A stretch of 64,000 nt of DNA, from assembly GCA_965216565.1 (NCBI GenBank), contig OZ244170.1:4000001-4064000 (forward strand). The letters run 5' to 3'. Below, piece by piece: positions 11,604 through 32,082 of the stretch (position 1 is its first letter; each line of letters opens with the position of its first letter). The DNA comes from Bythopirellula sp. (GTDB lineage: Bacteria; Planctomycetota; Planctomycetia; Pirellulales; Lacipirellulaceae). The notes under the pieces are model-generated. The model had not been told where the DNA came from. It was given only the letters and a program-made list of their open reading frames with translations, and searched no databases. The translations under genes and the position numbers were made by a program.

Positions 11604-14600
11604 TCAGTCCCTGCGGTAGACAGGTTCCTGGTCATCAATTTGCCAACCGACTACGTCATTCAAATTCAGGCGGAATGGCAGCCCTTGGCGGAGAAGCGGA
11701 AACAATTGCGATTCGCCCACCAACTCTCCTTCAAATTGCAGGCCCCCATAGTCTCGTGAGATTGAGTCAACCGCTAAGCGAAATTCTCCGCTCTTAACCT
11801 GTGGGATACAGTACGCTATCACCTCCAGTTGCGGATTCGCGGCCGACTCGAATCGTCTTGCTACCTCAGACAGGGCGAGTCTATGCTCTCGGTCACCAAC
11901 CACATTGGGCTGCTGTTGCCAGGAGCTTAGTGAAAGTCCCTGTCCAAGGACCAAGGGCACAACACCGCTTTGTATCCAGTGAGAAACCAAATCGTGATGT
12001 GCCGGATGCATTCGAAAACCACGCCAAGAGTCCACATCTTCGATACAGAGAATCCGGGAATGGCCTTTGGATAGTTCGCCTGTGACTCTTCGGGCAACAT
12101 CCTCTGCCTCTCGATGCTCGGTTTCGGAGAGGGCCACAGTCCCCACGACTAGCCAGTATTGGCACTTAGCGGCAGTTTCGAGTAATGGATGCGTTTCGCC
12201 GTCAAATTCCCAACCTCTGTCGAATGGCCCCTTTCCCGTTGCCAACCACACTCCAGATTTATCGAGCTGAATTGCAAAGCATCCGGAAGATTCCTCCCTG
12301 CGAGATCCCAGTGAAAGCAGTTTCTTGTCCGATAGTTTGTTTCTATCTAACGCGCTTTCGATCTGTTCGCTGTCCAAGTGCCAAGGTGTCTCGGAGAGAA
12401 AGACTGCATGAACAGTGTTAAAGTCATAGGGCAGTGCCACGGGGAATTCTCGTTGCAGTTCCCCGTATTCTTTGCCCCAAAAAACAGGCCCAGTTGATTC
12501 GCTGTGATAGAACGCAGTCGCCGACTCATCTTTCCTGGCGACTTCTAGTGCAAGTTGCTGCGCGCGGCGATGATTTTCTGTCGCTGCTGCCACGATTGCA
12601 AGATAGTCGACGTCGTTTGATTTCTGTTCGCGGCGGGACGCAAGCTGCTGAGCTTCTTTAAACATGTCCGTTCTTAGTAAGGCTGCAAAAAGACGAGCCT
12701 GATACAGGTCCCTCGTATAAGAGTACGAGAAGGAATCCTCCTCACCCTCCAGTAACTTCTTGGCGTGCTTGGCAAATGCCGAGTGGTCGCCTTGCTCCCA
12801 GGCAGCATTGGCCAAGTGGCGTGTTACTTGAGAGTCAGAGCGATGTGTGGTTCGATGGGCTAACACCAGTTGTTGCAGTCCATTCCAATCCTGGTCAGCG
12901 ATGAATTCACGTGCCAAGGTATTAAAGGCATCTTCCTTTGAGTTGTCAGACCCATAGTGCTGAGCCCAAGTTCCTGCAGCAATCGACAGTTGCAAAATGT
13001 GAGTATCGAAACCAGCACGACCGTTTGCCTCGGCCAACGATCGACCTTGCTGAAGCGACTCGATAGCCGAGTTCCACAACTGCTTTCCAGCCGCGAGTTC
13101 TGCTTTATAGTAATGCCATTGAGGATCGTCCGACTGATGTGCTTGGTGCAATTCGAGAAACGCTGCGACAGCTTCCCAGTGCCCTACTTGCGATGCCAAA
13201 TGGCACAGTTGTGCAAACCGGTTTCTCTTTTCGTCTGTAAGATTGTAGGCAGCGCTAAATCGTCCTTGCTTGTAGAGGACATTTGCCAGCATATAGTTGA
13301 GGGTCTCTGCATTGTACTGCTGGTTGTCATTTGGGTCCGATTCAGATGGTCGTTCTAACCCTTGACGCAAGAGCGCTTCCGCTTCTGCGTAACGACCATC
13401 CTCCTCTGCTAAGTGAGCAGAAAAATAGTAGCCCGCTAAGGAGTTGGGAAACTCGCGAACGAATTGAGCGCTAATCTGTTCGAGTTCTTCGAGCGAAAAT
13501 TGCGAGCCAATATCCTGGTATTCATAGACAATCGCGGTGAACAGCGCCTGCTTGCCGGGCGATTGATTCCAAGCCTCAACCCCGCGTCCAATGGAGCTCA
13601 TCGCGTCGACATAATTTTCGACGTAGCCATTGCGCGTCTGCTCGTCGTGCTCCGCTTGAAAGGCGAGTCGAAATTCGTCTGCAGCCTCTTGGAGTCTGCC
13701 AGCACTGCGCTGTGCAAGCCCGGCGACGTAATGACTTGCTGGCGACGTTGGGGAATTCCTTTGAAGATAGTCTCGCAGAAACGCAATCGCCTCTGGGTCT
13801 TGCCACGCAACCGATTGGGCCACCAAGGCTGCTGCTTTAGTTGGGTCCTTCTGACGCTCTAAGATGTTCTCAAACTGAGACTTCTGTTCAGCAGGCAACG
13901 CCAATAGCAGGGACTGCAAAGCGTTGGCGTGGTTAGGATCGATGCGGAGTATCTGCTCCCACTCCGCCAGGGCATTTTCATCTTGGCCCGAACGTTGGTA
14001 CAGTCGCGCCATTGTTTCACAAAGCTCAAGTGTCGGTCCCACACATTGCTTGTACTTCTTGGCATACTCGATGGCTCGTGCAGGATCTTTCCAGCGATAC
14101 GAATTCATCAGGCCGAAATAGGTCCCAGGTGTCTCTTGCGGTCGAGAGATTTGCTCGAAACATCGCAGTGCTTCGTCCTGTTCCCCAGCGGATTGCCAAA
14201 GATAACCAGCCGTCAGCCAACAGTACCCAACCATTTCCGGCGGGATCGGCTGGGTCTCGGCTTGCCGGAGTTTGTTTGTCGCATTTTCGTAGTCGCCCTC
14301 AGATATAAGTTGGTTCGATTCCGTGAGCAGATCGCTCCAGCGATTAAATCCTTCGTACAGATTGGTATCGAAGTGCCTTGCGTAAACTCCCCACTCTTCC
14401 GAGTAGTGAATGCCTTGATCCAACCGCTCCCAGTCGTACAGCTTCCACTGATCACCATCCCAACCAAGGATCAGACGCAATTCGGCACGGTCTTCTAGGT
14501 CGGGTAGTTTACCGTAAGCATAGATTATGCGAGTGTCGTGATCGTCCTCCGGAGTGAGTACACGAGCCACAACCAAATTGCTCCAGTAAGTATCTACATA

Positions 14601-15086
14601 AGCGGACTTTTTTAGCTGAGTTCGCAGATACCGCTTCTCCAAGAGATTATAGTTATCGAGATTTCCACCTAGCTCGATTCGCTTGAATAGCTTGTGGTGA
14701 TCAACCAAATTGCGGAATTGCTCGCTATCATTTGCCGCTGCAAATGCTCGCAGGTTGTTTAGTAGGCTTTCGATTGCTTGACGCTCTTCGACGTTTTCAA
14801 GCGGAATGCCAGGCAATACGTCATCAGAGGCCTCGAAGTTGCTAAACGCATCGACGGCTTCCGATTGCAGATGGGAAGTACTGTGCAAGCGGGTGACCGT
14901 CACGTTCTCGTCGGTTAACCGGGTCCGACGAATCACAAACCCAATAAATACGACAGTTGTGATTAGGCTAAGTAGAATTCCTCCCACGATGAGCAGGATT
15001 GGAATAACGCGGCGAGGTTTCTGGCGTTCGTCGATGGAGAGCCACTCGACATCCGAATCGAAAGAAGGATCGTTGCTGTGATTCAT
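11604..15086 (-). CDS. Large membrane-anchored TPR-repeat protein (last gene of the Ubl operon)
   Basis: 1160 aa with one N-terminal TM (VIPILLIVGGILLSLITTVVFIGFVI) and many TPR-like helices, e.g. ALAEWEQILRIDPNHANAL. Confidence 0.7.
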   Translation of the reverse strand: MNHSNDPSFDSDVEWLSIDERQKPRRVIPILLIVGGILLSLITTVVFIGFVIRRTRLTDENVTVTRLHSTSHLQSEAVDAFSNFEASDDVLPGIPLENVEERQAIESLLNNLRAFAAANDSEQFRNLVDHHKLFKRIELGGNLDNYNLLEKRYLRTQLKKSAYVDTYWSNLVVARVLTPEDDHDTRIIYAYGKLPDLEDRAELRLILGWDGDQWKLYDWERLDQGIHYSEEWGVYARHFDTNLYEGFNRWSDLLTESNQLISEGDYENATNKLRQAETQPIPPEMVGYCWLTAGYLWQSAGEQDEALRCFEQISRPQETPGTYFGLMNSYRWKDPARAIEYAKKYKQCVGPTLELCETMARLYQRSGQDENALAEWEQILRIDPNHANALQSLLLALPAEQKSQFENILERQKDPTKAAALVAQSVAWQDPEAIAFLRDYLQRNSPTSPASHYVAGLAQRSAGRLQEAADEFRLAFQAEHDEQTRNGYVENYVDAMSSIGRGVEAWNQSPGKQALFTAIVYEYQDIGSQFSLEELEQISAQFVREFPNSLAGYYFSAHLAEEDGRYAEAEALLRQGLERPSESDPNDNQQYNAETLNYMLANVLYKQGRFSAAYNLTDEKRNRFAQLCHLASQVGHWEAVAAFLELHQAHQSDDPQWHYYKAELAAGKQLWNSAIESLQQGRSLAEANGRAGFDTHILQLSIAAGTWAQHYGSDNSKEDAFNTLAREFIADQDWNGLQQLVLAHRTTHRSDSQVTRHLANAAWEQGDHSAFAKHAKKLLEGEEDSFSYSYTRDLYQARLFAALLRTDMFKEAQQLASRREQKSNDVDYLAIVAAATENHRRAQQLALEVARKDESATAFYHSESTGPVFWGKEYGELQREFPVALPYDFNTVHAVFLSETPWHLDSEQIESALDRNKLSDKKLLSLGSRREESSGCFAIQLDKSGVWLATGKGPFDRGWEFDGETHPLLETAAKCQYWLVVGTVALSETEHREAEDVARRVTGELSKGHSRILCIEDVDSWRGFRMHPAHHDLVSHWIQSGVVPLVLGQGLSLSSWQQQPNVVGDREHRLALSEVARRFESAANPQLEVIAYCIPQVKSGEFRLAVDSISRDYGGLQFEGELVGESQLFPLLRQGLPFRLNLNDVVGWQIDDQEPVYRRD

Positions 15087-15143: not shown

Positions 15144-15638
15144 CTAGACCCCTATTGTTTTCAGCGTCCAATTCCCGATTAGCACGGCGATCAAACATGA
15201 GCCAATCCAGGTAGGCCACTGTCGCTGCACTATCGTATGACGCATCTCACGGAGGCAAAAGATTCGATAAGGGATCTGCAAAACTACGGCAATCCAAAGC
15301 AGCCAGCCCACACGATGGAACTGGATTGACTTAGTCAAATCACCACTCGACAGTGCAATAAAACTTCTTGTCAAACCGCATCCCGGGCAATCGGTTTCGA
15401 ACCAATAGCGGCTGCCACACATGGGCGGGAGCTCGACGCCACCGATGGTTACCGCCGAGGTCGTTCCGCTATCTTGGACGGAGAGCACAAGTGAAAGACC
15501 AAGTATCACAATGCTTGCTATGAGCATCGTCCAATGTCGATCGCGCAATTGTCGAACAATCTTCGCGGAATTAAGACTGGACCCTGCCTGATGTTCTGCG
15601 ACGGTCGGTTCGAGAACCAATTGGACTTCGTCATTCAT
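15144..15638 (-). CDS. DUF2752-family membrane protein
   Basis: C..R......CPGCGLTRSF motif flanked by TM helices. Start placed at ATG 15638. Confidence 0.8.
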   Translation of the reverse strand: MNDEVQLVLEPTVAEHQAGSSLNSAKIVRQLRDRHWTMLIASIVILGLSLVLSVQDSGTTSAVTIGGVELPPMCGSRYWFETDCPGCGLTRSFIALSSGDLTKSIQFHRVGWLLWIAVVLQIPYRIFCLREMRHTIVQRQWPTWIGSCLIAVLIGNWTLKTIGV

Positions 15639-15661
15639 GCGGGTCGCAATTCTCAAAAAAA

Positions 15662-16387
15662 TCAGCCCATCGTTTCGTTAGATACAGAAGGAACAAACAC
15701 GGTATCGCACTGGATGCAGCGTAACTTGCGCCCTGCCATTTCGTGGCGAAAGCGATACTTCTTTTTGCAGCTGGGACACGTTACCGAAGCTGTTGATGCG
15801 GGGTTGGCCAGCGCTTCGGAAGATGGACTATTGTTGGCCGTGGGCGATGGGGCGGGAGGCACTGGGGGTTTGAACGGTTCGCTTAGATTTGCTTGAACGG
15901 GGGCTGCTGCGGTGCTGCTTTGCTCTTCCACCAACAGGCTAACCGGATCCAAAGGAAGCTTTTCCTGGTTGAGTTCCACCCACCGTGCCGCGTCTCCATT
16001 CAGTGGACTTTTCACGTTGTAAACCTGATAGGCCAGCAATTCGCCGATGCGCATTACGATGGACGCCAATGGTTCGCCGGAACTCCAGTGGTCGCCCACA
16101 CAAATGGCATGGGGAGCAATATTCGGATGAAATACGGGCGACAACATGCGGCATTGGGGTGGAGTGCGCGGATAATTCCTTGGCAACACAATCTCAACCA
16201 TGTGGCTTTTAACGCCTTGCAACTGGTCATCGACCATGCGAACACTATTAATACGAAACTCAAGTTGGTAGCGCTCGGGAGGATCTCCCTCGGCTTGGAT
16301 CAAACGGACTCGAGGATGAAGCCGCGCGTACTCTTTCAGTTTTGCATGGTCGGCAGTCAACCGTCTCAAACGTACCGTACTCATCAA
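15662..16387 (-). CDS. Ubiquitin-conjugating enzyme E2 (UBC fold) with a C-terminal zinc ribbon
   Basis: RLRRL N-terminal helix, LPRNYPRTPP, VFHPNI..AICV..HW (HPN motif plus catalytic Cys) and SPLN. Pro/Ser linker, then CPSC-x16-CIQC. Confidence 0.92.
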   Translation of the reverse strand: MMSTVRLRRLTADHAKLKEYARLHPRVRLIQAEGDPPERYQLEFRINSVRMVDDQLQGVKSHMVEIVLPRNYPRTPPQCRMLSPVFHPNIAPHAICVGDHWSSGEPLASIVMRIGELLAYQVYNVKSPLNGDAARWVELNQEKLPLDPVSLLVEEQSSTAAAPVQANLSEPFKPPVPPAPSPTANNSPSSEALANPASTASVTCPSCKKKYRFRHEMAGRKLRCIQCDTVFVPSVSNETMG

Positions 16388-17694
16388 TCGCTCTCCTCAG
16401 CTTCTTGATCGGTAACGATATTTTGACTGGTGATGTCAAACCGTTCAGGGATCAAATCGACCAGCGTGCTAAAGTCGATCGCAAATCCCAGCCCTTCGGC
16501 AATCCTCTTTTCAGCAGTCATAGAGTTGATGCCGACTAGGTGTCCCTGAGAGTCGTAGAGTCCCCCGCCACTATTGCCGGGGTTGATTGGTGCGGAGGTC
16601 TGCAAGATCTTAAACTTCATATTCCCGCGCCTTTGACTTCGAATTTGCGAGAGGCTACCTGACGTATGGGTCCAGCCCAACCCGTGGGGATTGCCTACAG
16701 CAAATACTTCATCGCCAATCTTAGCTTTTTCGTTGTTGTCCCAATTTGCCTCTTGGACGTCTCGATTAGAAAGTGGAGCTGATACGATGGCCAGATCGAT
16801 ACCGTGGGGAGCGACCCATTCAACTGCGCCGGGAATCGACACTTGACTAATCGACATCACCATGACACTGGCGAGGTCGGACAGATTTTTTGGAGCACTT
16901 GTCGTCGAATCGGAGTAGTTCTGGTCGATGACATGCCGGTTCGTCACGATGTAGGCCTGTCCATTGTTGACTTTTAGCACAACGCCCGAGCCGATGCCGG
17001 CACGTCCGAACCCGGCATCAATTTGAATTAAGACATTCGCCCGCATGGCACGTGCGATGTACTCAGGCAAGTCGTCCAGTGAACTGGCATCAATGGCGAG
17101 TTCCGACATAGAGACGGCAGCCCGCGGTGTGCCAAAGTAGCTGGACAGCCCAATAGACCAGCCTACGACGTCTAACAGTCCCAACACCATCGCGGCAACG
17201 GCTAGTCCCATACCCCGTCGATTTTCGCGATGGATCACCAGGGCGATGCAACCGATCAGGATTGCGATAAGTCCCGTGATTATACCGAACAGAGGAATGC
17301 CCAGCAGTGCGACGACCATCGCCCAAATGCTCGCCCGATTCCACCTCCTATCAACTTTCCTGGCGTCTTCTGCCTCAAGACTATTGAACGATTTAGGCGT
17401 CGGGAGTGGCTCGGTGCTTTGAAGTTCTTCGCGAGTGATCGTCAGCGGCGTTTTTTCGCTGCTGGCAATCGTAGCTTTGCCCTCGGTACACTCATACGCG
17501 CTGCAGCCGTGGCCCTCTTGCCAACAATTTTCGTGGTGGACCGCTCCGCAAGACGTGCAGACCGCTACGGGGATGCTGAGGCTAATCTCTGCGCTGCATT
17601 TAGCACATAACGCCCCCGCCTCTCTCTCACCGGCATTGCGTATGATGGGGTCGTTGTGTGACACGTGTTTCACCAAGCTCAAAAGACTATGCAT
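16384..17694 (-). CDS. Prokaryotic RING-like domain + DUF4190-like TM region + trypsin-like (S1C) serine protease
   Basis: CAKC-x12-CTSCGAVHHENCW..GHGCSAYEC, then TM helices, then the triad TNRHV / DLAIV / NPGNSGG. Confidence 0.85.
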   Translation of the reverse strand: MHSLLSLVKHVSHNDPIIRNAGEREAGALCAKCSAEISLSIPVAVCTSCGAVHHENCWQEGHGCSAYECTEGKATIASSEKTPLTITREELQSTEPLPTPKSFNSLEAEDARKVDRRWNRASIWAMVVALLGIPLFGIITGLIAILIGCIALVIHRENRRGMGLAVAAMVLGLLDVVGWSIGLSSYFGTPRAAVSMSELAIDASSLDDLPEYIARAMRANVLIQIDAGFGRAGIGSGVVLKVNNGQAYIVTNRHVIDQNYSDSTTSAPKNLSDLASVMVMSISQVSIPGAVEWVAPHGIDLAIVSAPLSNRDVQEANWDNNEKAKIGDEVFAVGNPHGLGWTHTSGSLSQIRSQRRGNMKFKILQTSAPINPGNSGGGLYDSQGHLVGINSMTAEKRIAEGLGFAIDFSTLVDLIPERFDITSQNIVTDQEAEESD

Positions 17695-17712: not shown

Positions 17713-18423
17713 TCATATCTCGGAGACAACCACAAACAGTAGCATCAACGCAGAATAGATCGCAGACAGTACGATGGCCGTCCATCCCATGATACTAAAA
17801 AGTGGCCCGCATCGCTTCAGTTTGTCGCGTCTGGGAAGAATGTAACCAAGGGCGATCAATAGCATCAGAGGAGCACAAAGCCCCAACAGCGAGCAGATAA
17901 AGATTCCTGTCACCCATTGTTTCATGGATTCCAGCTCATCGCTGAGCTTACCTTGACGACGAAGATCTCCCGCCGACATGGGATCGACTGTCTCAAAATC
18001 TGTTTGGCAGTATCTGCACCGCAGAGCAATCGATTTTATTTTCTCCCCGCATGCTGGACAACTCTTCGTGTCTCCCCAGGCGGTGAGAGGTGCTTGCACC
18101 GAGGCTTCCGACTTGTCGATTATCGATGCCTGGTCACAACCATAGGTTCCACAGCCACCCACTTCTGACCAACACTCTCGATGGTGCACTTGATCGCAAC
18201 TTGGACAGGTGACGCAATCTTCGCTGACACCAATGTCACTCTGACAAATGGGGCACAGCGCATCTCGCCCAGCATCCAGGGTCACCGAGTTTAGGAGCTT
18301 CAGGTCGGCGGTAACTGCTAGACCCTGTTCGCAGCTGGGACAGCGGAACGAACGATTGGCGCGGTCCTCGGGCAAACGGATCTTCGCACCGCACTGGCAA
18401 GTAATCGTTGTGCTGCTGTCCAC
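17713..18423 (-). CDS. Zn ribbon + prokaryotic RING-like domain + Zn ribbon + TM (candidate membrane E3)
   Basis: CQC..CPSC; CPIC-x12-CPSCDQVHHRECW..VGGCGTYGC; CPACGEKIKSIALRCRYC; C-terminal hydrophobic helices. Confidence 0.85.
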   Translation of the reverse strand: MDSSTTITCQCGAKIRLPEDRANRSFRCPSCEQGLAVTADLKLLNSVTLDAGRDALCPICQSDIGVSEDCVTCPSCDQVHHRECWSEVGGCGTYGCDQASIIDKSEASVQAPLTAWGDTKSCPACGEKIKSIALRCRYCQTDFETVDPMSAGDLRRQGKLSDELESMKQWVTGIFICSLLGLCAPLMLLIALGYILPRRDKLKRCGPLFSIMGWTAIVLSAIYSALMLLFVVVSEI

Positions 18424-18427
18424 TTGT

Positions 18428-18967
18428 TTACGGCGCCTCAGCCACTACGCTTAGCAGGACTCGCACCACCATCCAGAATCCCTGCACGGCAAGTGAAACC
18501 AGAAACATCTTTTTGCCCTTTGGTTTACCCTGAATCATCCAGATGATGCCTACGATACACCCAATTCCGGAACAGAGAATAGCAATCACCCACTCACCGG
18601 TGGACAGGTCGTCGTCTTCGTAACCTCCAGCGGAGCTGGTCTTCTTTACCTTCTTTTGTTCTTGTTTTTTGAGATCGGGATCAAAGATCTCTCCGCAGAA
18701 CCGACACTTGACCGCCTTGCGAAGAATCATTTCGCCACAGGCGGAACAGGGCTTGCGGTCGTCTTCTTGAACCTCGCCGGAAGTCAAATCTGCTTCGCTC
18801 AGTCCAGCCAGCGGCGACGCGAGTGGGTCGAGTGCATCGTCCTCTTGTTGAAGATTCGGGATCTGCAGCACACCACCGCACTTGGGACATTTGGCTTTTT
18901 TCCCGGCGGAACTATCTGGTGTGCTGAGCGTGGCACCACAGCCGTTGCAAGTCACTTTGATAGACAC
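18428..18967 (-). CDS. Double zinc-ribbon membrane protein
   Basis: CNGC..CPKC and CSAC..CRFC with two C-terminal TM segments. GTG start with a GGGGAG RBS. Confidence 0.8.
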   Translation of the reverse strand: MSIKVTCNGCGATLSTPDSSAGKKAKCPKCGGVLQIPNLQQEDDALDPLASPLAGLSEADLTSGEVQEDDRKPCSACGEMILRKAVKCRFCGEIFDPDLKKQEQKKVKKTSSAGGYEDDDLSTGEWVIAILCSGIGCIVGIIWMIQGKPKGKKMFLVSLAVQGFWMVVRVLLSVVAEAP

Positions 18968-19092: not shown

Positions 19093-20076
19093 TCATCGGA
19101 GATCACTCCTTAAATCGATAGCGGCCATGAGAGACTTGAGCAACCGAAGGAACCACACAAAGGCAACGATGGCCGCCACAAGTATCGTTATGCCGAGAAT
19201 TCCCAAGACAATCCCAGCTTCCTGATCTCCCAAAACCACACTAAGAATACCAATTCCAACGGTGCCGAAGAATAATACGACACCGAAGATTATGAATCTC
19301 GCCGCACTGCGAGCCAAAACATCGTCATCAAGATGTATTGCCGTGCGGCGAATAAACAGAATGAAGAAAACGTTTCCAATAGTTGAGCAGAGGCTTCCGA
19401 GAGACTTGAGAGCCTCTGACTCCATCCCACTACCAAACATAGAAAGGCCTGCACTTGCCATCGTGCAGAAAAAGGCGGTCAACGCAAAAGCACGGGCTCC
19501 ACTGTTTGCAGGAACCGCGGTGGTCCGCGCTTGTCCAATGAGTATGGTTAGGCCGGCTCCTAGAATGGTCAGTCCGGCAACTCCGAATACTGTTAGAAAC
19601 AAGACTGACGGAGCCTTGTTATCTTCTTCCACAAAGGCACCAGTCACCATCAGTGCCACCATCATCGCAACGAAGCAGACAAAGACAATGACTATGCCGT
19701 AATAGATATTCGCCAATCCTCCTCGGACCTTATACCAACTGGGATCATTCGGATCGAATGCTCCGCCACTCGTCCTGGCCATCGATTTATCGAAAATCGT
19801 GCTGCAAAAACGGCACTTCACGGCCGTGCGAATGATCATCTCGCCACACGCGGGACAAGGCTTACGTTCGTCTTGGTCCTCTTCCCCAGCAGTTGTTTCT
19901 TCCTCACCATAGCCTCCGAGAGGCGATGCGATTGGCTCGAGTGCGTCGTCCTCTTGTTGAGGGCCGGGGATCTGCAACATACCGCCACACTTGGGGCATT
20001 TCGCGCGCTTGCCGGCAGCAGAGTCGGGCGTGCTGAGTTTACTTCCACAGCCGCTGCAAGTCACTTCGATGGGCAC
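19093..20076 (-). CDS. Double zinc-ribbon polytopic membrane protein
   Basis: CSGC..CPKC and CPAC..CRFC with about six C-terminal hydrophobic helices. The N-terminus is paralogous to 18428..18967. Confidence 0.8.
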   Translation of the reverse strand: MPIEVTCSGCGSKLSTPDSAAGKRAKCPKCGGMLQIPGPQQEDDALEPIASPLGGYGEEETTAGEEDQDERKPCPACGEMIIRTAVKCRFCSTIFDKSMARTSGGAFDPNDPSWYKVRGGLANIYYGIVIVFVCFVAMMVALMVTGAFVEEDNKAPSVLFLTVFGVAGLTILGAGLTILIGQARTTAVPANSGARAFALTAFFCTMASAGLSMFGSGMESEALKSLGSLCSTIGNVFFILFIRRTAIHLDDDVLARSAARFIIFGVVLFFGTVGIGILSVVLGDQEAGIVLGILGITILVAAIVAFVWFLRLLKSLMAAIDLRSDLR

Positions 20077-20149: not shown

Positions 20150-20286
20150 CTAGAACCAGTTTCAAAAACCGAAAACAGTTCTATGTAAGCCGACGGCGTT
20201 AGCCGCGGGTGGCGTAAGTCTAGGTGTTGTTCTGATGCTACCCGACGCTAGCGCGGTCGGCTCATTGGTTTTGAAACAGCTTCTAG
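20150..20286. mobile_element. 137-bp MITE-like element with CTAG-ended imperfect terminal inverted repeats and an internal inverted REP-like pair
   Basis: Left end CTAGAACCAGTTTCAAAA vs reverse complement of right end CTAGAAGCTGTTTCAAAA. Internal GTAAGCCGACGGCGTTAGCCGCGGG vs reverse complement ATGAGCCGACCGCGCTAGCGTCGGG. Confidence 0.7.
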
Positions 20287-21350
20287 GCATTCTTAGACTC
20301 CTTTAGGGAGAACTCCAATACAGTTTTCCCAAGGACAATCTGATCTCCATCTTCCAGAATCCGGTTGGTTACGGGAATACCATTCACGTAGGTTCCCTCA
20401 GGCGAATCGCAATCTTCGATCACAAACCGGCCTCCTCGATTGACGATCTGCGCGTGCCGAGGTTCGATGGCGTCGTCTTTGAATAGATAGATATCAGCCT
20501 TGGGCGAACTTCCCAAGAAGGTGGTGTCCTTGAAAAGGATAAACTGCTTGCCGGCCAACGGGCCCTTACGCATCATTAGCCAAGCGGTCTTTGTCCAGCC
20601 CTCGACAAGTCCGACAAACAATCCGACCGACGCACCAATCACGGCAAACCCAACGCCACGGCTATACGTGGCCTGTCCGTCTTCGGTAAGCAGCACCAGG
20701 CTAATGGGATCGAAAAGCAGACCCCCCAGCAATCCACCCAGTACCGCGCCGACTAGGCCATTGATGATTACTTTTTTCTCGCGCAACGCAATGCCTTGGC
20801 CAATCCCGGCAGGAATCGAGACTATAGCCCACGCCGCTCCACGGCCCATCATCAATACCAATAGAGCGAGCCCTGTGGGCATGACATTGGGATCGGGATC
20901 TTCCCATAGACTTTCTGCCAAAACGCTCATGATTCCAAATACAAATCCTGTGGGGATCAGAGCCATGACTCCACCAAGGAACCCAACGCCGAGTCCCACG
21001 AAGCCACAACGAATTGCCCGCAGAGGATTTCGGCAGATGATCCCTTCGGCAGAGCCCAAGAGCAGGCCAATGAAACCAGCAACCGTGGGGAACAGTAGGA
21101 GCTTGGCGGCCAAGCCTTCATCTTCCAGATCGTTGTCGTCGACCCAGGGTTCCAAAATTCCCCACCCGATGAGACCACCCACCATGGCGGCGAGGGAGAG
21201 ATAGAACCAGTTTGCGTAAATCACCTTCACGATCCACGACTGATGTCCCATCTCGCCGAGGTCACGGCTGAGGTATTGCTGCATCTCGACGTATTGCTCA
21301 ACGTCGGGTGAATGCAGATCAGTGGACGTGATACGGATTGGATCCGACAC
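20283..21350 (-). CDS. Polytopic Gly-rich membrane protein with a C-terminal FHA-fold domain
   Basis: About six TM helices, then GPLAGKQF..LGSS..DI......IEPRHAQI.....F.IED.DS..GTYVNG......L.DGD.I.LGKT.L.F. Confidence 0.85.
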   Translation of the reverse strand: MSDPIRITSTDLHSPDVEQYVEMQQYLSRDLGEMGHQSWIVKVIYANWFYLSLAAMVGGLIGWGILEPWVDDNDLEDEGLAAKLLLFPTVAGFIGLLLGSAEGIICRNPLRAIRCGFVGLGVGFLGGVMALIPTGFVFGIMSVLAESLWEDPDPNVMPTGLALLVLMMGRGAAWAIVSIPAGIGQGIALREKKVIINGLVGAVLGGLLGGLLFDPISLVLLTEDGQATYSRGVGFAVIGASVGLFVGLVEGWTKTAWLMMRKGPLAGKQFILFKDTTFLGSSPKADIYLFKDDAIEPRHAQIVNRGGRFVIEDCDSPEGTYVNGIPVTNRILEDGDQIVLGKTVLEFSLKESKNA

Positions 21351-21355
21351 AAAGA

Positions 21356-22573
21356 CTACCTTTCGTCCGGTTCTGGCGAATCGGGAACTTCTAGTTCGGG
21401 TTTACGAGGCTCGAGACTTGGTGCCGCGGGAAGTTTATCTGCCAGGGGAATCGGGGTTGTTTGTTTTTTAAGATTCGATTCCGGAACTGTTCCTTTCTCG
21501 TCGCTTTGCGATTTCCTCTCTTTGTCCGCTTGCTCGAGTATCTTTAGCTGCTTGGCTTGGAGACGTCTGGAAAGCTCCGCCAGGGCCCGGCGTTCGCGGT
21601 CGTCGAAGCTGTATCTTGAGCTAACCTCGTCCAGCCGCTTCGATATTCCCAAGAGATTTCCGATCAGCAGTTTGCGATCGTTGGCGAGTTCTTTGAGTTG
21701 CTCCTCGGAGAGTTCGTTGGTCTCGGTCGGCATCGATTTCATCTGCTTGGTGGCAGAGGCCAGAAATTTCTGCACCTCGGCCAGTTCTTCGCGCAAGCCA
21801 AGTTTCGTCAGGCGGAAATCGGTGTAGTTGAACACCACACCGTCGACAATCGCTTGACGCTCCCAGGAAGACTTCATGCCGGCAAGCAGATAGCCCAAAA
21901 GGAACAACGCCAACAGGGCCAGCGGCGTCGCCGCATACGAAAAGAATCCAGGTTCCTCAGCGGGGCCGATTCCATTAGCACCCTGTGCGTTTGCCGAACC
22001 CTCCTTGGCAGCCTCGGCGGCGGGATTGCGGATGCTGGCTTCGACGGTGCGAATGGTATTGCCAATCCAATAGTGACTGATGGGAGTCGGCTTACCATTT
22101 TTCCAGGCAAAGACTCCCTCTAAATCTCTCACTGGATCGACAACATAGGCGACTTGGCCGGGACCCGAGAAAAAATGCTCGTGGATGAAGCAGTCGCGGT
22201 CGGAGAGGAAAATGCCGAAGTCGGGATGCGAATGGTACCAGCCGACAATCCGTTTGTCTTCGAATCGAGAATCCATCTCGCTATTGATCTGGCTCCACGA
22301 TTCGTGCGTGAAGGTGACCTCGGCAAATTTGCTAGTGGCGCTCTCGCAGCGAATGAAATCTTCGGCCACAGCATAGGGACCATCGTCGTCCTGGTACCAC
22401 AATCCGACCAGCACCCCGCAGATTTCAACGGAGGTGTCTTGCTTGGCATGCTTGGATATTCCTTGATGGACCTCAGGCGAAATGTGAAATCGAAAATCCG
22501 ACTTGCCACTGGCAGGAAACTGGCTTTGCTGGAGTTGTTCGTCGGCCAAGCCTCCGACATCAATATCACTCAT
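21356..22573 (-). CDS. JAB/MPN+ (JAMM) metallopeptidase with a TM anchor and coiled-coil C-terminus
   Basis: EICGVLVG ... VGWYHSHPDFGIFLSDRD (E-xn-HxH-x7-S-xx-D) and TM TPLALLALFLLGYLLAGM. The start ATG at 22573 overlaps the end of the E1 gene and has a GGGGAG RBS. Confidence 0.92.
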   Translation of the reverse strand: MSDIDVGGLADEQLQQSQFPASGKSDFRFHISPEVHQGISKHAKQDTSVEICGVLVGLWYQDDDGPYAVAEDFIRCESATSKFAEVTFTHESWSQINSEMDSRFEDKRIVGWYHSHPDFGIFLSDRDCFIHEHFFSGPGQVAYVVDPVRDLEGVFAWKNGKPTPISHYWIGNTIRTVEASIRNPAAEAAKEGSANAQGANGIGPAEEPGFFSYAATPLALLALFLLGYLLAGMKSSWERQAIVDGVVFNYTDFRLTKLGLREELAEVQKFLASATKQMKSMPTETNELSEEQLKELANDRKLLIGNLLGISKRLDEVSSRYSFDDRERRALAELSRRLQAKQLKILEQADKERKSQSDEKGTVPESNLKKQTTPIPLADKLPAAPSLEPRKPELEVPDSPEPDER

Positions 22574-23780
22574 GCCTTGCTCCCCCATTTGCTGTCGGAT
22601 CCTGCAACAACGGCCCCAGCAATTCTTGCCGGTCTCCTGCAAATTCGTAGTATCTCGCGTCCATGCCCGCACGTCCTGCTAGGATATCCCATGGTGGGAT
22701 TCCGAGTTCGCCGAGTGTTCGATCAAGCAGAGACGAGTCTTCGCCTAGCGTGTGATAAATATTGGGAGTGCGCGGTTCGTTGCATTTTTTGCAGCGGCCC
22801 TGGTCTTCAGAGACTTTACCTAGCGAGGTATAGATTTCCTCGGTCTCATCACAATTAGTACAGGTAAGTGTGGCCAGGAGGTCTTGATTGGTTTCAATCA
22901 CCGCTGCGGCTCCCAAGTCGGATCGGACGCGCTCCAAGAACTCGCCCACGGTTGTCTTTGCAATCTGCCAGTCTAGTTCTTCCACCGGTTCGTAGGGCTC
23001 ATGCGAGGGGCACTCCTCAAGTCTTGAATAGCTCACCAGATAACTTTGGTGATTGGTGCCATCGAGCACGAATCCTTGTCCGGCAATCGACGGTAGTTGA
23101 TGTAGCATTTTTACTGCTTCTTGCACCTGAATGCCAGCAATTATTGAGGAAGAAGTTGGCGTGGTGGGTACTTTCCCCTGTTGCATCTCTTCGCGAGTGA
23201 GCAGTGCGCAACTCCTACGGGCCTCAAGCATTTGCCAATCGATCTCGCTCATGGTGCATTCGTAACACGGCCCCGAGGCGGCGTCGAATACCCGCGCAAC
23301 CCCGTCGAGCCGTTCGATAGCTCCATCGATCCACGGTTTCCCAACCCTAGCTGCCGATAGATTGATGGCCACGCGAGCCTCGCGATTGTCGAGACCGCCG
23401 AGAATCACATCAGCCCAGCGATAAACTCCCAAACCCAAATCATAAACGATGTTGCCTTGGAACGACTGGGTGCGAAGCTCAGGATAGATGTCCCGTGCGC
23501 GTTCCGTAGCCACTTCCGCTTTGGCCCGGCCACAATCATCGCCGCGGTACAGAACAGAACGAGACAGATTCGAGTTTTCAATGGTATCCAAATCGGCAAC
23601 GAACATCTTGCCCACGCCGAGAAGGGCCAAGTTTTTGATGATTTCGTTTCCCAGTGCCCCCGCACCAATCACCAGAGCTTTCGAGGAAGTTAGAAGCTGT
23701 TGATCCCACCAACCAATCAGATCGAAGCGAGAGAAGCGTCCTTCCTCTAGCGCCGAACCAATCTTAATGGGATCCGTCAT
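22566..23780 (-). CDS. E1-like ubiquitin-activating enzyme (ThiF/UBA) with extra C-terminal Zn-binding domain
   Basis: IGAGALG, DLDTIENSNLSR, GLDNREAR, GPCYEC, candidate thioester Cys in RRSCA, CPSH, and CTNC..CKKC. Start placed at ATG 23780 (GGAG RBS). Confidence 0.92.
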   Translation of the reverse strand: MTDPIKIGSALEEGRFSRFDLIGWWDQQLLTSSKALVIGAGALGNEIIKNLALLGVGKMFVADLDTIENSNLSRSVLYRGDDCGRAKAEVATERARDIYPELRTQSFQGNIVYDLGLGVYRWADVILGGLDNREARVAINLSAARVGKPWIDGAIERLDGVARVFDAASGPCYECTMSEIDWQMLEARRSCALLTREEMQQGKVPTTPTSSSIIAGIQVQEAVKMLHQLPSIAGQGFVLDGTNHQSYLVSYSRLEECPSHEPYEPVEELDWQIAKTTVGEFLERVRSDLGAAAVIETNQDLLATLTCTNCDETEEIYTSLGKVSEDQGRCKKCNEPRTPNIYHTLGEDSSLLDRTLGELGIPPWDILAGRAGMDARYYEFAGDRQELLGPLLQDPTANGGARHE

Positions 23781-23796: not shown

Positions 23797-24117
23797 TCAG
23801 TCGCACCCGACGCCAAGGATTGTGCATGGAGAATGGAACAGACGCCCCACCCCGGCGGTTATTTCCGGCTGGAGTCTAAGGATATCACCCTCTTCGACGT
23901 GGGCGGATTCCAGCGTGTCTGTATCCAAGAGCTGCCGGCCAGATTTTTTGTGATGAAACTTGTAGCTCATTGCCTGACCATCCGGGCTGTGTCGAGGCAG
24001 ATTCATGCGATCGATCAAGACGGCAATCAGACGATTCACTTCGGCATCGGGAGGAACTTCTACCAATTGACGTTTGTTGCCGGTTGCGTCCCAGACTTCG
24101 ATTTTGATATCACTCAT
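23797..24117 (-). CDS. Ubiquitin-like beta-grasp protein (YukD/EsaB-like) with a C-terminal extension
   Basis: IKIEVWDATG...VEVP...GRQL...TL....V.EGDILRLQPEITAG followed by VGRLFHSPCTILGVGCD*. First gene of the E1/JAB/E2 operon. Confidence 0.85.
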   Translation of the reverse strand: MSDIKIEVWDATGNKRQLVEVPPDAEVNRLIAVLIDRMNLPRHSPDGQAMSYKFHHKKSGRQLLDTDTLESAHVEEGDILRLQPEITAGVGRLFHSPCTILGVGCD

Positions 24118-24764: not shown

Positions 24765-25592
24765 ATGATGTCGAATCCATTGACGGTCCTCATTCCTTGT
24801 AAGGATGAACGCCTCAACATTGTGCCCTGCATTGAATCCATTCAATCGTTTGCCGACGAGATTCTGATAGCGGATTCAGGCTCAACCGATGGCACTTTAG
24901 AATTGGTTCACAAGCGTGGTGACTGCCGTGTGATCGAACGCGAGTACATCAACTCGGCCGACTTCAAGAATTGGGCGATTCCGCAGGCGAGTCATCCCTG
25001 GGTTCTTATTCTGGACGCTGATGAACGGATCACAGAGGAACTAGCGGCAGAGATTCGGCAGACACTTGCGAACCCTGCCGTTGAGATCGATGGCTATTGG
25101 ATTGGAAGACAAAATCACTTCGTGGGTCACCGCATCAATCATTGTGGTTGGAATCGAGACGGGGTGATACGGCTTTTTCGGCGCGACGACGTGCGTTATC
25201 AAGAGCGCTGGGTACATGCCAAGATGGAAATTGAGCCGGAAAGGGTAGCTCGCCTCAAGGAAACGATGTTGCATTACACAACGTGGTCGACCGACGACTA
25301 TTGCGAAAAGTTGAATCGCTATGCGAACTGGACGGTCAACAACTACGTGGCCAAGGGACGTCAGCCGAGTGTGCTATCGATGTTTCTGGCGGCACCGCTA
25401 CGATTCTTACAGCTTTACTTGTTGCGAGGCGGGATTCTCGATGGCGCCCCCGGTTTTCAGGTATGCATGTATTCGGCGTTCTACTCGTTTATGAAACAGG
25501 CCAAGCTATGGGAAGTGAGCCACGCCCGATTAGAGCCAGGTGCCGAACCGAGGCTGGCAGTTCACGCGAAAGACACAGCCGACGCCGCGTAG
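24765..25592 (+). CDS. Glycosyltransferase family 2 (WaaE/KdtX-like beta-1,4-glucosyltransferase type)
   Basis: DEILIADSGSTDGT, WVLILDADE (intact DxD), RLFRR...VH, KLNRY and LLRGGILDG.PG. Confidence 0.88.
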   Translation: MMSNPLTVLIPCKDERLNIVPCIESIQSFADEILIADSGSTDGTLELVHKRGDCRVIEREYINSADFKNWAIPQASHPWVLILDADERITEELAAEIRQTLANPAVEIDGYWIGRQNHFVGHRINHCGWNRDGVIRLFRRDDVRYQERWVHAKMEIEPERVARLKETMLHYTTWSTDDYCEKLNRYANWTVNNYVAKGRQPSVLSMFLAAPLRFLQLYLLRGGILDGAPGFQVCMYSAFYSFMKQAKLWEVSHARLEPGAEPRLAVHAKDTADAA

Positions 25593-25632
25593 AAATGAAG
25601 CGAATTGCTTAGGCCTGCGTTTTCAAGCATGC

Positions 25633-27231
25633 TCAGGCCGCTTGTTGCGACTCTTCGGGAACCGGCACTTCATCGCCCGCCGATCGCTCTAGATAGATGA
25701 GCGTATTCTCGTGGGTGTAAGTCTCCAGCGCAGCCAGCAGGCACGTATGCAGTCCCGCCCATCCATCACGCCAACCAGATCGCAATAGATACGTCTTGAA
25801 GAATGTAGCCACCGTCCTACTCAGCATTCTCGACGGAGTGGACTGCTGCCCTTGTAAGAAGACTCGTCCAGCATTCGTAGTCGCAAGTGCGACACGCTCC
25901 TCAATTCTCTTTGCCGGATTGTCCGACGTTTGCACGGCTAAACGAGAGCGAAGTGCCCCAGTACATTCGCTCGGGATTTTCAGTTCAGGCAAACCATCTA
26001 TTAGGCAATAGCTTCCGACTTCGTGCCGAAAAAGTCGCAAGGAGTCGGACCGTTGAAACCCACCGTAGCGAAGGTGCGTGCCCTGCACGCAAGGTGTCGT
26101 GCCGACTATGTACCCATCCTTGGTGGGATTAAAGATTAAGGTGTGCTGCACCTGCCGACCCAGCTCGGGGTTGAGGTGTTCGTTACCCCTTACCTGCAAG
26201 ATCCATGGATGCTGTGCCTGCTGACGCGCGAACTCGAGCGCCTCGCACTGATTACAAGTTGGGCTCTGAATGATACGGCCTATGCCCTGGCTGCGGACGA
26301 TATCGAGCGTACCGTCGGACGATCCCATATCGACAACTAAGATTTCGTCGGCAAAGTCGCGCACCGATTCCAAACAGCTGGCGATTGTCGATTCGTTATT
26401 AAAACTAGAAATCAGTACTGAGAAGAGTTGTGAGCCGCTGTTTTCTCGTGGGCGAGCCTCGCCTAAAAATTGCCTGGCCTCGTCGGACTGTTCGATTAGT
26501 TTGGCTGCGAAGGGTTTCTTGAGAATGGCTTGCCGTACGATTTCTGCAGCCCCGGGATTGGATCGCCAGTTGCGTGGATGGAGCAAATCGCGGACGTCCC
26601 TGCCCTGCCGTTTCCGGAAGCGATGACAATGTTTTCGATATCGTGCGATGCTTTCCAAATCGATCAGCCAAACCTTGTCTTGCGGATCGACCAGTAGGTT
26701 CTCCGCCTTCAAATCCTTGTGAGCAACTTTCAGCTCGTCGAGTCGCTGGAGAATGTCTGCAATTTGCTCCCCGATCGTTTGCATTCTCGCAGCGCTGGGA
26801 TTTTCGTGACGCAGGAGTCGATAGAGTGTGGTGGACTCCACATGATCGGTAAGAAAGTACGACCGTGTTTTCAACGGTCCCACGGTGGTTTCGATACAGG
26901 CCCGAGGTCGCGGCGTAGGCACTCCGAGATTGTATAGATACGTGCTATTTTGCATCGATCTGCGGGCAGTTGTTTTAGACAAAGCATTCTTGGCACGCGT
27001 GCCGAGATCATTGAGATCTTGGCATTTGTAGACGTACTCTCCCGCGCGATCCCGTATCTGGACGACCTTGCAGCTCAATTTCACATGCAAGGGCTCGCCC
27101 TCGGCCAATTGAGCGTAAGGGTCCTGCCACAGTTTTTCGGCCAATTCCTCTGGTAGTTGGCTGTCCCAGAGCATTGCGCGTTGGAGGGAGCGGCGCTTTA
27201 GGACCTGCAGCTTTTGAAACTGATCTGTCAT
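25633..27231 (-). CDS. Kdo/WaaP-like (LPS kinase family) kinase fused to a GT2-like domain lacking DxD
   Basis: GVPTPRP, AHKDLKAENLLV and WLIDLE in the kinase half. DEILVVDMGSSDGT in the GT half, but WILQVRGNE in place of WVLxLDADE. Confidence 0.8.
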   Translation of the reverse strand: MTDQFQKLQVLKRRSLQRAMLWDSQLPEELAEKLWQDPYAQLAEGEPLHVKLSCKVVQIRDRAGEYVYKCQDLNDLGTRAKNALSKTTARRSMQNSTYLYNLGVPTPRPRACIETTVGPLKTRSYFLTDHVESTTLYRLLRHENPSAARMQTIGEQIADILQRLDELKVAHKDLKAENLLVDPQDKVWLIDLESIARYRKHCHRFRKRQGRDVRDLLHPRNWRSNPGAAEIVRQAILKKPFAAKLIEQSDEARQFLGEARPRENSGSQLFSVLISSFNNESTIASCLESVRDFADEILVVDMGSSDGTLDIVRSQGIGRIIQSPTCNQCEALEFARQQAQHPWILQVRGNEHLNPELGRQVQHTLIFNPTKDGYIVGTTPCVQGTHLRYGGFQRSDSLRLFRHEVGSYCLIDGLPELKIPSECTGALRSRLAVQTSDNPAKRIEERVALATTNAGRVFLQGQQSTPSRMLSRTVATFFKTYLLRSGWRDGWAGLHTCLLAALETYTHENTLIYLERSAGDEVPVPEESQQAA

Positions 27232-27475
27232 GCGGCTTTGCTTCAAGCAGTTGCGTGTGCTCACTTGCGAATGCCAGTGCTAGCACGTGAGAGTACGCGA
27301 TTATTTCTTAATATTGCGACCTGTTTGGCCGACGATGTTAACTCTTGCGGCCTGGGCAGCCGATACCAATTCTATCGGTTGGAGGGCCTACTGCCGCCTA
27401 TGCAAAAAGTGCGGCAGGAGACGTTTTGTTGTCAGTAGCGTTCATGTGTCATCCAATAGAAGAGCGACTGCGAGT

Positions 27476-28693
27476 ATGAAATCCATCGAGCAACCGCTAG
27501 CACCGACTCGCTGGTTCCGCGTGGGCAAATATCTATTGCCGGTCGGTGTGAATCACACCAGTTGGCGACGCACAAAGTCTCCCAGCAAACAAGTATCGGC
27601 TGCAGAGCTAGCTGCCGAGCATCCCGAGCAGGTGACTCTCGAAACCCTTGGCTCGGAGGAATTGCTCCCAGAGTTTCCCTATGCATGCATTCAGTCGGGA
27701 GCAGTAACCGAAAAAGCCCTGCCAATTAAGAAATGCCCCGCCGCGTTCGTCGCACGAATACAGAACGGACAATCTTTCGGCCGTCATTGCTGCGCAATCG
27801 GCCCAGCAGGGAAAGCTGTTCGAGAGACCGGGTTCAATCTTGAAGGCAACGTTCGCAACCAGGGCTCGTCAATGAGCTCGTTCCGACCTCGCTATTGGCG
27901 TCGTCGGCTTGAGGGTGACGTCACTTTTCGGCCTTGGCTTCCTCCCAAGCACTATCTTCGCGGGCGGGTTGCGATTCTCAATACACGGACGAGCCACAAC
28001 TATTTTCATTGGCTCATCGATATTCTGCCCCGCTTAATGCCGCTCGAAAAGTTAGGCCTACGAGCAGATTTCTATCTCGTTGAGTGTCTCAGTGAGTTCC
28101 AAAAGCAGGTGTTGGAATTTCTCGGCATCGACCGCAGTCGATTGATCCAGCCACATTGCCGCATGTTGATCGAAGCCGATGAACTGTTGGTTCCATCGAT
28201 GCCGACTCCAACGTGTTTACGAGACTTCGGTAAATTTGTCACTGACAAACTTGGCACTCAGTCTCAGTCCAGTTCTGGAAAAAAGATCTATATCACGCGT
28301 CGCGCGACAGGTAGCCGTGCGATTGCCAACGAAGCTGAACTGATCCGCGTGCTCGCTGCTCGAGGATTCGAGACCCATGCGATGGAAGACTACACACTCC
28401 CCCAGCAGGCGTCACTCTTTCGTCAAGCGGATGTAATCCTGGCGACTCACGGAGCTGCTCTCGCCAATTTGATCTTTGCCCATCGTGGGGCCCGCGTCAT
28501 CGAAATCGTACCCGAAAACCGATACAACGCGACATGCTATCCCAGAAAGAGCCGCATCCTTGGCCTGCACCATCAACACGTGTTAGTTGAAAGTAGCAAG
28601 CACAAACAAGTACTCAATGTTTCGTTAGCAGACATCGAGGCTGCTCTTGTATGTGCTGATGAGGCTACAAGCCACCAGAAACAAGTAGCTTAA
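27476..28693 (+). CDS. Glycosyltransferase family 61 (DUF563)
   Basis: NYFHWLIDILPRL, KIYITR....R.I.NE, Q..LF..AD.I...HGAALANL.F and VIEI. Start placed at ATG 27476. Confidence 0.88.
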   Translation: MKSIEQPLAPTRWFRVGKYLLPVGVNHTSWRRTKSPSKQVSAAELAAEHPEQVTLETLGSEELLPEFPYACIQSGAVTEKALPIKKCPAAFVARIQNGQSFGRHCCAIGPAGKAVRETGFNLEGNVRNQGSSMSSFRPRYWRRRLEGDVTFRPWLPPKHYLRGRVAILNTRTSHNYFHWLIDILPRLMPLEKLGLRADFYLVECLSEFQKQVLEFLGIDRSRLIQPHCRMLIEADELLVPSMPTPTCLRDFGKFVTDKLGTQSQSSSGKKIYITRRATGSRAIANEAELIRVLAARGFETHAMEDYTLPQQASLFRQADVILATHGAALANLIFAHRGARVIEIVPENRYNATCYPRKSRILGLHHQHVLVESSKHKQVLNVSLADIEAALVCADEATSHQKQVA

Positions 28694-28764
28694 GAAGGCA
28701 CCTCGACGAAATAGTCGTGAACCATACATCGCTCAGAAATTACAAAAACTGGAGTCGTCCTGAT

Positions 28765-30372
28765 ATGCAATCTCCAACCCCTTGGCAAAGTGATCCTGTC
28801 TTCATAGAGATAGGCGTTCAGAGTGCCGATGTTGCGCTTAGTTTGCGCCACGAAGGGTACTCGAAGTACTTGGGAGTTAGTGAAAGTTCCGGGCAGGTGG
28901 CTGCTTTGCAGGCCGCTCACCCCGAGATCGCAGCCGATCTAGTGCACAGCAAACATCGTAAGGTGGTGCGTCGTAACAACGCGCAGGTCTTGATTCTTTC
29001 CGGCCTCTCGGTCTTGCACCTATGGAAGTACCGATCGGTCCGTCACGCAGAGTGTGTTGCCTGGCGAGCAAGTTTTTCGCCTCTAACGCTCTTGGGCATG
29101 CTGGGATGCTTACTGCAGATGCTCACAAAGCGATATTCAAAACCACAAATTGTTTCCCTGAAATCGGCCACAGGAAAACCTCAGCGATTGTTCGTCACCC
29201 GCGTGTTGCGACCGAAACTACCAGGGCAAAAGTCCTTGCACTTTATTCCTCACCGACTAGGAATAAAGGGTTTATTCGATCGATTCGCAGAGCAAGGGTC
29301 AAAGTATGTCGTGTTGCGCTGGTTTGACGAACTGCCCGAGATCAAGCCGAACGAGGATGTCGACCTCCTGGTGGCCGACGAATCACTGGATAGCGTCTTG
29401 GAAACTCTCAGCTCGCAGCCTGGAATTCAACCTTGCGATCTCTACAGTGAACGAGGTTTGCCGCGTTCGGACTACTGCGGTACGCCTTACTACCCAGCCG
29501 CAGTCGCACAGCGGCTTTTAGATAACGCAGTTCGGCACAACGACCTTTGCATGGTGCCTGACGATCAAGACTACTTCCATAGCCTTGCCTATCACGCGGT
29601 TTATCACAAGGGTTTGAAATCCGATCTGCCAGTTAGCGGCAGTGACGAGCAGCGAAGAAGCAAATCGGACCACGACTACGCCGCCATTTTGGAATCGATG
29701 GCGACCCAGTTGGGAATCGACGTCGAGATATCTCTTGAGGGATTACACCGCTATCTGCAGCAAACTGGTTGGGGACCTTCCGACGAAATGCTGGCCCGGT
29801 TGGCAATTGCCTGCTGGCGAAACCCATGGCTGCAAACGCTGGCCAGTCGGCTGGAAGGTCACATCCACGACCAAGGCCTGGCCGTATTTGTAGTTCGCCG
29901 TGAAGCCGTGGATAGAGGTTTGCTAGAGCAAATCACCGACATGGTCGAAGTGGGCGGATTCGAGATTCTTCAAACCAAGAAGCTCAGCGAAGAAATGATT
30001 CGAACCGGTGCATCCCAAACACGGGGAGGCAATTGGAAGTTGGAGGGGCCGTTTGATATCTCAGGCGGACCACCGGCAGCCGTTATCGTCGCCTACGACC
30101 ACCAGCCGTTGCCACTAACCGCGAAGCAAAGCCGCAAGTTTACGACGCGGACCAATGCTCGGCTGTTCGTCAAAGAAAAGATTCGCGATGTCCTGTGCGA
30201 GCAGTTGCCCTCGGGCGAGCGATTCAATGCCCTTCATTCCAGCGACCATGCCGCCGACGCCCTGCATTTGATTGAAACACTCGTGCCAGAGTTGATGGAC
30301 GATATCGTATCTCGTCTGACGGAATCACCACGAACGATCCCCATTCGCAAAGAAATCCGTCGTGCCGCTTAA
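28765..30372 (+). CDS. Multidomain protein: Rossmann-like N-terminus, nucleotidyltransferase-like middle, NDK-like C-terminus (paralog 1)
   Basis: FIEIGV; YVVLRW....EDVDLLV; RREAVDRGL..I...VE.GGFEI; SGGP; NALHSSD. Confidence 0.55.
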   Translation: MQSPTPWQSDPVFIEIGVQSADVALSLRHEGYSKYLGVSESSGQVAALQAAHPEIAADLVHSKHRKVVRRNNAQVLILSGLSVLHLWKYRSVRHAECVAWRASFSPLTLLGMLGCLLQMLTKRYSKPQIVSLKSATGKPQRLFVTRVLRPKLPGQKSLHFIPHRLGIKGLFDRFAEQGSKYVVLRWFDELPEIKPNEDVDLLVADESLDSVLETLSSQPGIQPCDLYSERGLPRSDYCGTPYYPAAVAQRLLDNAVRHNDLCMVPDDQDYFHSLAYHAVYHKGLKSDLPVSGSDEQRRSKSDHDYAAILESMATQLGIDVEISLEGLHRYLQQTGWGPSDEMLARLAIACWRNPWLQTLASRLEGHIHDQGLAVFVVRREAVDRGLLEQITDMVEVGGFEILQTKKLSEEMIRTGASQTRGGNWKLEGPFDISGGPPAAVIVAYDHQPLPLTAKQSRKFTTRTNARLFVKEKIRDVLCEQLPSGERFNALHSSDHAADALHLIETLVPELMDDIVSRLTESPRTIPIRKEIRRAA

Positions 30373-30425
30373 GCACTAGCACAGTATCCATTTTGAAAAT
30401 AGAGAGTTCGGAGACAGCAAGAACA

Positions 30426-32033: not shown

Positions 32034-32082
32034 TCTTGAATATGGGAATTACTAGACCATAACGGATTCTGGGGAGAACACC

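Follow-up and report, generated by a model that had tools for sequence, protein, structure and literature searches.

A ubiquitin-like protein of a planctomycete operon as a probable precursor with an Ala-Gly end

Several prokaryotic ubiquitin-like proteins (Ubls) are made with C-terminal extensions that a JAB metalloprotease removes. The ubiquitin of Caldiarchaeum subterraneum (CsUb) has a 9-aa pro-peptide and is described as refractory to E1 until CsRpn11 cuts after Gly-Gly (PMC5654768, PMC6043591). Among bacteria, BilC of the Type II BilABCD system cuts BilA at Gly97/Ala98 (PMC10557695), 12 BilA homologs with 2-9 aa overhangs are reported for Type I Bil (bioRxiv 2023.09.04.556158), and in Type I Bub the BubCD JAB cuts the BubAB pre-protein after Gly229 (PMC11601596). 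The idea of a prokaryotic Ubl precursor is therefore not new, trimming by a JAB having been published for BilA, BubAB and Caldiarchaeum Ub. In related systems a JAB has been predicted to cut the Ubl free of a longer polypeptide (PMC7159879). Operons with Ubl, E1, E2, Prok-RING and JAB genes are described as sporadically spread, with Planctomycetes named (PMC4197634, citing Burroughs 2011).

The window, that is, the whole 64,000-nucleotide Bythopirellula stretch analysed, contains such an operon, with the same gene set as those of Burroughs, Iyer and Aravind (2011) as given in secondary citations (PMC4197634, PMC3417536, PMC7159879). It resembles the C. subterraneum operon in combining a single-domain Ubl with a C-terminal extension, an Rpn11-type JAMM protease and a complete E1/E2/RING set. 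However, CsUb ends in Gly-Gly and the Ubl here in Ala-Gly, the Caldiarchaeum Rpn11 is soluble whereas the JAB here is predicted to be anchored by a transmembrane segment (TM), and the operon here also encodes membrane proteins with FHA, zinc-ribbon and trypsin domains. As in Bil, the bacterial Ubl may or may not carry a short overhang past the reactive Gly, which in Bil the operon JAB removes; Bil differs in lacking a RING and in its E1/E2 types, while a RING and membrane-protein genes are present here, and in PADLOC neither the Ubl nor the E2 had a match and the E1 matched BilD only weakly. In Bub the JAB likewise frees a Ubl from a C-terminal extension, and relatives of the present Ubl are fused to E2 (P0258, P0266), yet Bub forms Tyr/Ser oxyesters and has BubE, whereas Cys motifs in E1 and E2 and a RING are found here. 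No gene for a proteasome subunit turned up; the match to PF00227 lies beside an HslU-like gene and looks like HslV. A literature search with subscription papers and preprint supplements outside its reach found no experimental study of the RING-containing Ubl family, and no mention of an Ala-Gly precursor in it or of the sequence bias after the Gly that is described below.

Operon and Ubl gene

The Ubl gene is the first of a co-directional run that forms a Ubl-E1-JAB-FHA-RING-trypsin-E2 operon. Its features, in window coordinates, are:

23797..24117, minus strand: Ubl precursor gene, 106 aa, YukD-like beta-grasp (ATG 24117, TGA 23799-23797)
23851..24117, minus strand: predicted mature Ubl, residues 1-89, ending P84-E-I-T-A88-G89 (from AG conservation and natural tail-less loci)
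23800..23850, minus strand: unconserved 17-aa tail, first residue Val90 at P1' (from translation, alignment and model)
22566..23780, minus strand: E1, ThiF domain, 404 aa (Pfam ThiF, E 3e-48)
21356..22573, minus strand: JAB/MPN+ metalloprotease, Rpn11-like, 405 aa (PF01398, 50.7 bits)
20283..21350, minus strand: multi-TM protein with C-terminal FHA domain (Pfam with hydropathy and motif reading)
19093..20076, minus strand: zinc-ribbon membrane protein (weak Zn-ribbon matches under cut-off)
18428..18967, minus strand: zinc-ribbon membrane protein (weak matches under cut-off)
17713..18423, minus strand: Prok-RING_1 protein, candidate E3, also carrying zinc ribbons and, at its C-terminus, hydrophobic segments (PF14446, 37.3 bits, cut-off 29.1)
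16384..17694, minus strand: Prok-RING-like domain, 3 predicted TM (DUF4190) and HtrA-like trypsin domain (H254, D300, S375)
15662..16384, minus strand: UBC-fold E2 with HPN 86-88, Cys95 and C-terminal zinc ribbon (Pfam, motifs)
15144..15656, minus strand: DUF2752 membrane protein (Pfam)
11604..15086, minus strand: large TPR protein, possible operon end (same strand as operon)

An E1 with ATP motifs and Cys, an E2 with HPN and Cys, a Prok-RING and a JAB are therefore all found in the operon of the Ubl. The E1 has GAGALG, SNLSR and CxxC motifs and a candidate catalytic Cys191 within RRSC, and its best PDB matches are UBA1/UBA7/UBA3; the RING of the trypsin protein scores 28.4, slightly under cut-off. 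Most of the operon genes encode membrane proteins, and gene order is retained among relatives, the closest named ones being Lacipirellulaceae-type planctomycetes. The system is patchy, occurring in 51/401 genomes of the phylum and 2/24 other genomes of the genus, many of these genomes being incomplete.

Past the operon end lie a zinc-ribbon DUF4190 protein (11184-11582, plus strand), a PEP-CTERM protein (10882-9953, minus), a phosphodiesterase-TPR-sulfotransferase-like protein (9841-6980, minus) and a Ser/Thr kinase (5024-6919, plus) that is a candidate partner of the operon FHA protein. A glycosyltransferase cluster (24765-33054, plus) is divergent from the Ubl gene. Elsewhere in the genome, another Prok-JAB gene adjoins an E1-like match that is apparently broken at its start (G000:C1:4219264-4220680), and a WXG100 gene, together with a small neighbour resembling it and an ORF of 1201 aa, makes up a type VII-like locus (G000:C1:2967997-2972929).

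Translation from the ATG at 24117 gives 106 aa, the C-terminal part being DILRLQPEITAG-VGRLFHSPCTILGVGCD, with the Gly89 codon at 23853-23851; the tail of 17 aa after ...EITAG, the Gly codon and the stop position given in the initial annotation are exact. A GTG start upstream at 24171 was rejected because homolog starts align to the ATG. Pfam YukD matches residues 12-82 (E 1e-7, above cut-off), no NCBIfam model matches the Ubl, and a PDB sequence search returned sub-threshold matches only, CsUb among them. In the AlphaFold model residues 1-89 form a beta-grasp (block pLDDT 73-88), and confidence in the tail is low (pLDDT 45-48). The best Foldseek match of the model is Caldiarchaeum ubiquitin (6fj7, 31% identity), with SUMO/ubiquitin near-tied, and comparison with ubiquitin-like domains gives Z scores of 10-12 (e.g., 6oar: Z 11.7, rmsd 2.2, 77 aligned). 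K15 and K53 are invariant in 31/31 aligned Ubls and K57 is found in 27/31; K15 is a candidate chain site.

The reading frame through the tail also appears in other assemblies. Contigs from two runs, possibly the source, are identical over the Ubl stretch. One contig from an independent study covers it gap-free with two listed differences in the tail, both synonymous, and a contig from a further study carries the same two; that 2/2 are synonymous is a faint hint of constraint on the tail in another strain. A stop right after TAG, as a sequence error would have hidden it, is absent from these strain contigs (contigs, not raw reads), and since contigs from separate studies read through Gly89, a missed stop is very unlikely. 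Together with the tails of most homologs, the contigs speak against sequencing error as the origin of the tail.

End of conservation, tails and P1' residues

Protein homologs and DNA loci were both examined. The best-scoring 120 of 2056 protein matches, query included, all contain PEITAG (120/120), and 117/120 have a tail of 1-60 aa; the tails of these best 120 match the present tail at 87/977 ungapped positions. The DNA set had 146 rows, from which 4 duplicates and 4 loci open at contig ends were subtracted to leave 138 complete loci; left out of the locus analysis were 5/55 matches, L017-L018 and L169-L170. The fold ends in Ala-Gly in 137/138 complete loci, in Ala-Ala in one and in Gly-Gly in none. 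The exception, L078 (G057:C135), has a 9-aa tail after its Ala-Ala and is additionally left out of the set of 137 loci used below. The 80 metagenome loci were retrieved partly via an LQPEITAG pattern and are hence biased, while the 65 genome-derived loci are free of that bias. Ala-Gly is kept down to about 30% core identity, Ubls of clades at about 30-40% identity differing in the preceding residues (VYPEIVAG, LTSTFVAG, LTPDVTAG, LQPNIDAG), and AG is present in 117/123 domain matches that reach the end among representatives of 50% clusters. Conservation thus stops at Ala-Gly and the tails are variable, in proteins and loci alike, as the initial annotation had predicted for such an alignment; its proposal that the mature terminus is AG, not GG, agrees with the 137 loci.

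The tail is optional. A stop immediately follows the Gly in 32/137 loci, where local base composition predicts 4.1, and in 13/65 of the genome-derived loci alone; this excess of about 8 times over chance points to Gly89 as the working end of the Ubl. The median tail length is 4 aa, and lengths of 1-2 residues are common. On a tree of 320 sequences the tail was gained or lost at least 40 times (shuffled mean 46). The Ubl stop overlaps the start of the next gene in 37/105 tailed loci vs 1/32 tail-less loci, the tail-less group being the sole baseline; here there is no such overlap, the stop lying 16 nt upstream of the E1 ATG. To judge from these sequences the tails look like translated spacer. 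Because gains and losses are many, and because the sole constraint detected is a first residue suited to the protease, drift of the stop codon into the intergenic spacer likely left the tail as a tolerated by-product rather than as a regulatory mask.

That constraint concerns P1', the first residue after the Gly, for which we used residues following internal Gly within the same tails (n=348) as control and excluded extensions >70 aa from the counts. Pro is found at P1' in 0/271 cases vs 24/348 after internal Gly (Fisher 7e-7) and Asp/Glu in 2/271 vs 28/348, while Ala/Gly/Ser reach 154/271 vs 99/348. Contrary to a simple small-residue rule, the bulky Arg is frequent (37/271); Val, the P1' residue here, occurs 18 times. 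With P1' having changed 186 times or more across the tree of 320 sequences, ancestry alone explains the bias poorly. When sequences were thinned to <80% core identity, Pro, Asp and Glu together gave 0/70 vs 76/486 (p 2e-5), and at <70% 0/39 vs 46/272 (p 3e-3), a level at which neither Pro alone (p 0.055) nor Asp/Glu alone (p 0.088) is significant. Deubiquitinases are not known to act on Gly-Pro. The pattern fits the published preferences of CsRpn11, for which Glu at P1' is reported to block cleavage and Gly to accelerate it (PMC6043591). The footprint would be indirect evidence, at the level of sequence, for cleavage in vivo across the family.

The operon JAB and other explanations of the tail

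The JAB consists of an N-terminal catalytic domain followed by a single predicted TM at about 208-236 and then by a C-terminal tail. Its residues E50, H114, H116, S124 and D127 form an intact Glu and HxH-x7-S-x2-D site, these E/H/H/S/D residues are invariant in 58/58 aligned domains, and its best PDB matches are Rpn11 (E 7e-10) and CsRpn11. Preceding the single predicted TM, the domain would face the cytoplasm. We modelled the JAB domain with zinc and Ubl 1-95. The complex scored 0.77 vs 0.00 for the best control, against a mark that is reached by 116/157 solved pairs and 2/215 mismatched pairs; runs share at least 88% of contacts, and partner pLDDT is at least 86. Ubl residues 83-91 sit in the model against the catalytic Glu, the zinc ligands and JAB residues 66-73. 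Since solved look-alikes exist (6fnn, CsRpn11-CsUb; 8tyx, BilC-BilA), the model shows likeness, not binding, and both complex and TM topology are predictions. Ubl K53 and K57 fall within the modelled interface. A Gly77Ala change, which places Ala at P2, is reported to slow CsRpn11 (PMC6043591), so by analogy the present JAB, with its putative Ala-Gly substrate, would have had to adapt.

Tail-less loci retain an intact JAB wherever the JAB gene is complete (16/16), which suggests an additional role, likely deconjugation. At one tail-less locus (L008:11534-12738) the match to the JAB gene is split over two reading frames, the break lying past the catalytic domain, and this may be an assembly error. 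A complete operon clearly lacking a JAB was not among the loci; at L086 and L088 the JAB matches are weak and the motif is absent.

A tail selected as a mask, whose clipping by a membrane-tethered JAB would be a localised and regulated activation, is an idea with some observations in its favour: the JAB here has one predicted TM past its domain, a TM is scored in 47/71 complete motif-bearing JABs, the operon is rich in membrane proteins, and tails are present in 105/137 loci. We nevertheless consider it improbable, as tail-less loci are enriched, not depleted, 10 of them retain a TM-anchored JAB, tail lengths and sequences are unconserved, and the tail has come and gone repeatedly on the tree. 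Moreover, 12/17 loci with short TM-less JABs, ending 44-94 residues past the motif, have tails; we rely on these 17 short complete JABs because TMs were called with a crude cut-off on hydropathy, which misses some long JABs. No association of the tail with JAB presence or with a JAB TM was seen in the locus analysis. The 32 tail-less loci and the 12 tailed ones with soluble JABs speak against the earlier view of maturation as a membrane-localised activation step. As tail and tether vary independently, the tether would more likely position deconjugation near membrane substrates.

The initial annotation left the cutting enzyme open between the JAB and the operon trypsin-like domain. The JAB is the likely one, given the P1' footprint, its intact site and the complex model. 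Alternatively, the JAB would be a deconjugase only, and the trypsin-like domain, a host carboxypeptidase or some general host protease would cut the tail; retention of an intact JAB in the 16/16 tail-less loci where its gene is complete does imply a role beyond maturation, the trypsin triad is intact, and a second Prok-JAB is present elsewhere in the genome. This reading is decidedly improbable, because the P1' pattern and the complex model suit a JAMM, because the RING, TM hairpin, basic loop and third TM predicted for the trypsin protein place its protease in the periplasm (by hydropathy only), an arrangement conserved in homologs, and because 18/24 loci without a trypsin match, some of them short, are still tailed. 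We find it scarcely credible that the Ubl is a non-conjugated adaptor of the YukD/EsaB type, serving a type VII-like secretion system with the tail irrelevant, even though Pfam YukD matches above cut-off, Bacillus YukD is reported as not conjugated (PMC1779556), and a WXG100 pair lies at about 2.97 Mb in the genome. That locus, the sole match over cut-off, is about 1 Mb off, the neighbours of the Ubl are E1, JAB, RING and E2 rather than WXG100 and FtsK-like genes, and E1, E2 and JAB are all visible in 52/137 loci, many of the others being short contigs. A near-invariant terminal Gly and selection at P1' make sense only for a processed terminus.

We conclude that the Ubl is probably a precursor with an Ala88-Gly89 end that is matured by the operon JAB. 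The cytoplasm-facing, Rpn11-type JAB would likely remove the 17-aa tail constitutively, after which E1 would adenylate Gly89 and the trimmed Ubl would pass via E2 and RING to predicted membrane-associated targets. We infer cleavage, charging, conjugation and targets by analogy with the described systems.

Fusions in relatives and meaning for the family

Relatives include 19 fusions of Ubl-Ala-Gly to an extension >70 aa. In four proteins (P0193, P0202, P0205, P0207) a signal peptide of the lipoprotein type, complete with lipobox, comes straight after Ubl-Ala-Gly, and a cut after Ala-Gly would expose it. Other in-frame fusions are the proteins P0258, P0266, P0133, P0187, P0196, P0199, P0201, P0203, P0210 and P0123 and those at loci L094 and L108; the partners are E2, zinc-ribbon (membrane) proteins or the E1 start. 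In P0260 (1052 aa), residues 538-750 hold a CHAT domain and then a Ubl ending in Ala-Gly, with the first Hint-domain Cys immediately after the Gly and another Ubl following, an arrangement that suggests self-cleavage at the same Ala-Gly site.

A wider reading, which we regard as rather unlikely, is that the JAB of this family is an Ala-Gly-specific processing protease of a membrane-bound RING-E3 system and that Ubl-Ala-Gly is a general cleavable leader in bacteria. If so, one site would free junk tails here and E2s, zinc-ribbon membrane proteins and lipoproteins in relatives, a lipoprotein signal peptide would stay hidden until the JAB cut, and the arrangement would parallel eukaryotic ubiquitin-ribosomal-protein fusions.

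For reconstitution of a RING-containing bacterial ubiquitination system, Ubl 1-89 is the form to use, and the remnants to expect on targets are Ala-Gly, not Gly-Gly. The Ala-Gly end also raises a well-defined question about specificity, since archaeal Rpn11 is poor with Ala at that position. Points of interest for the family are this specificity, the P1' footprint and the relatives in which whole proteins follow the same site.
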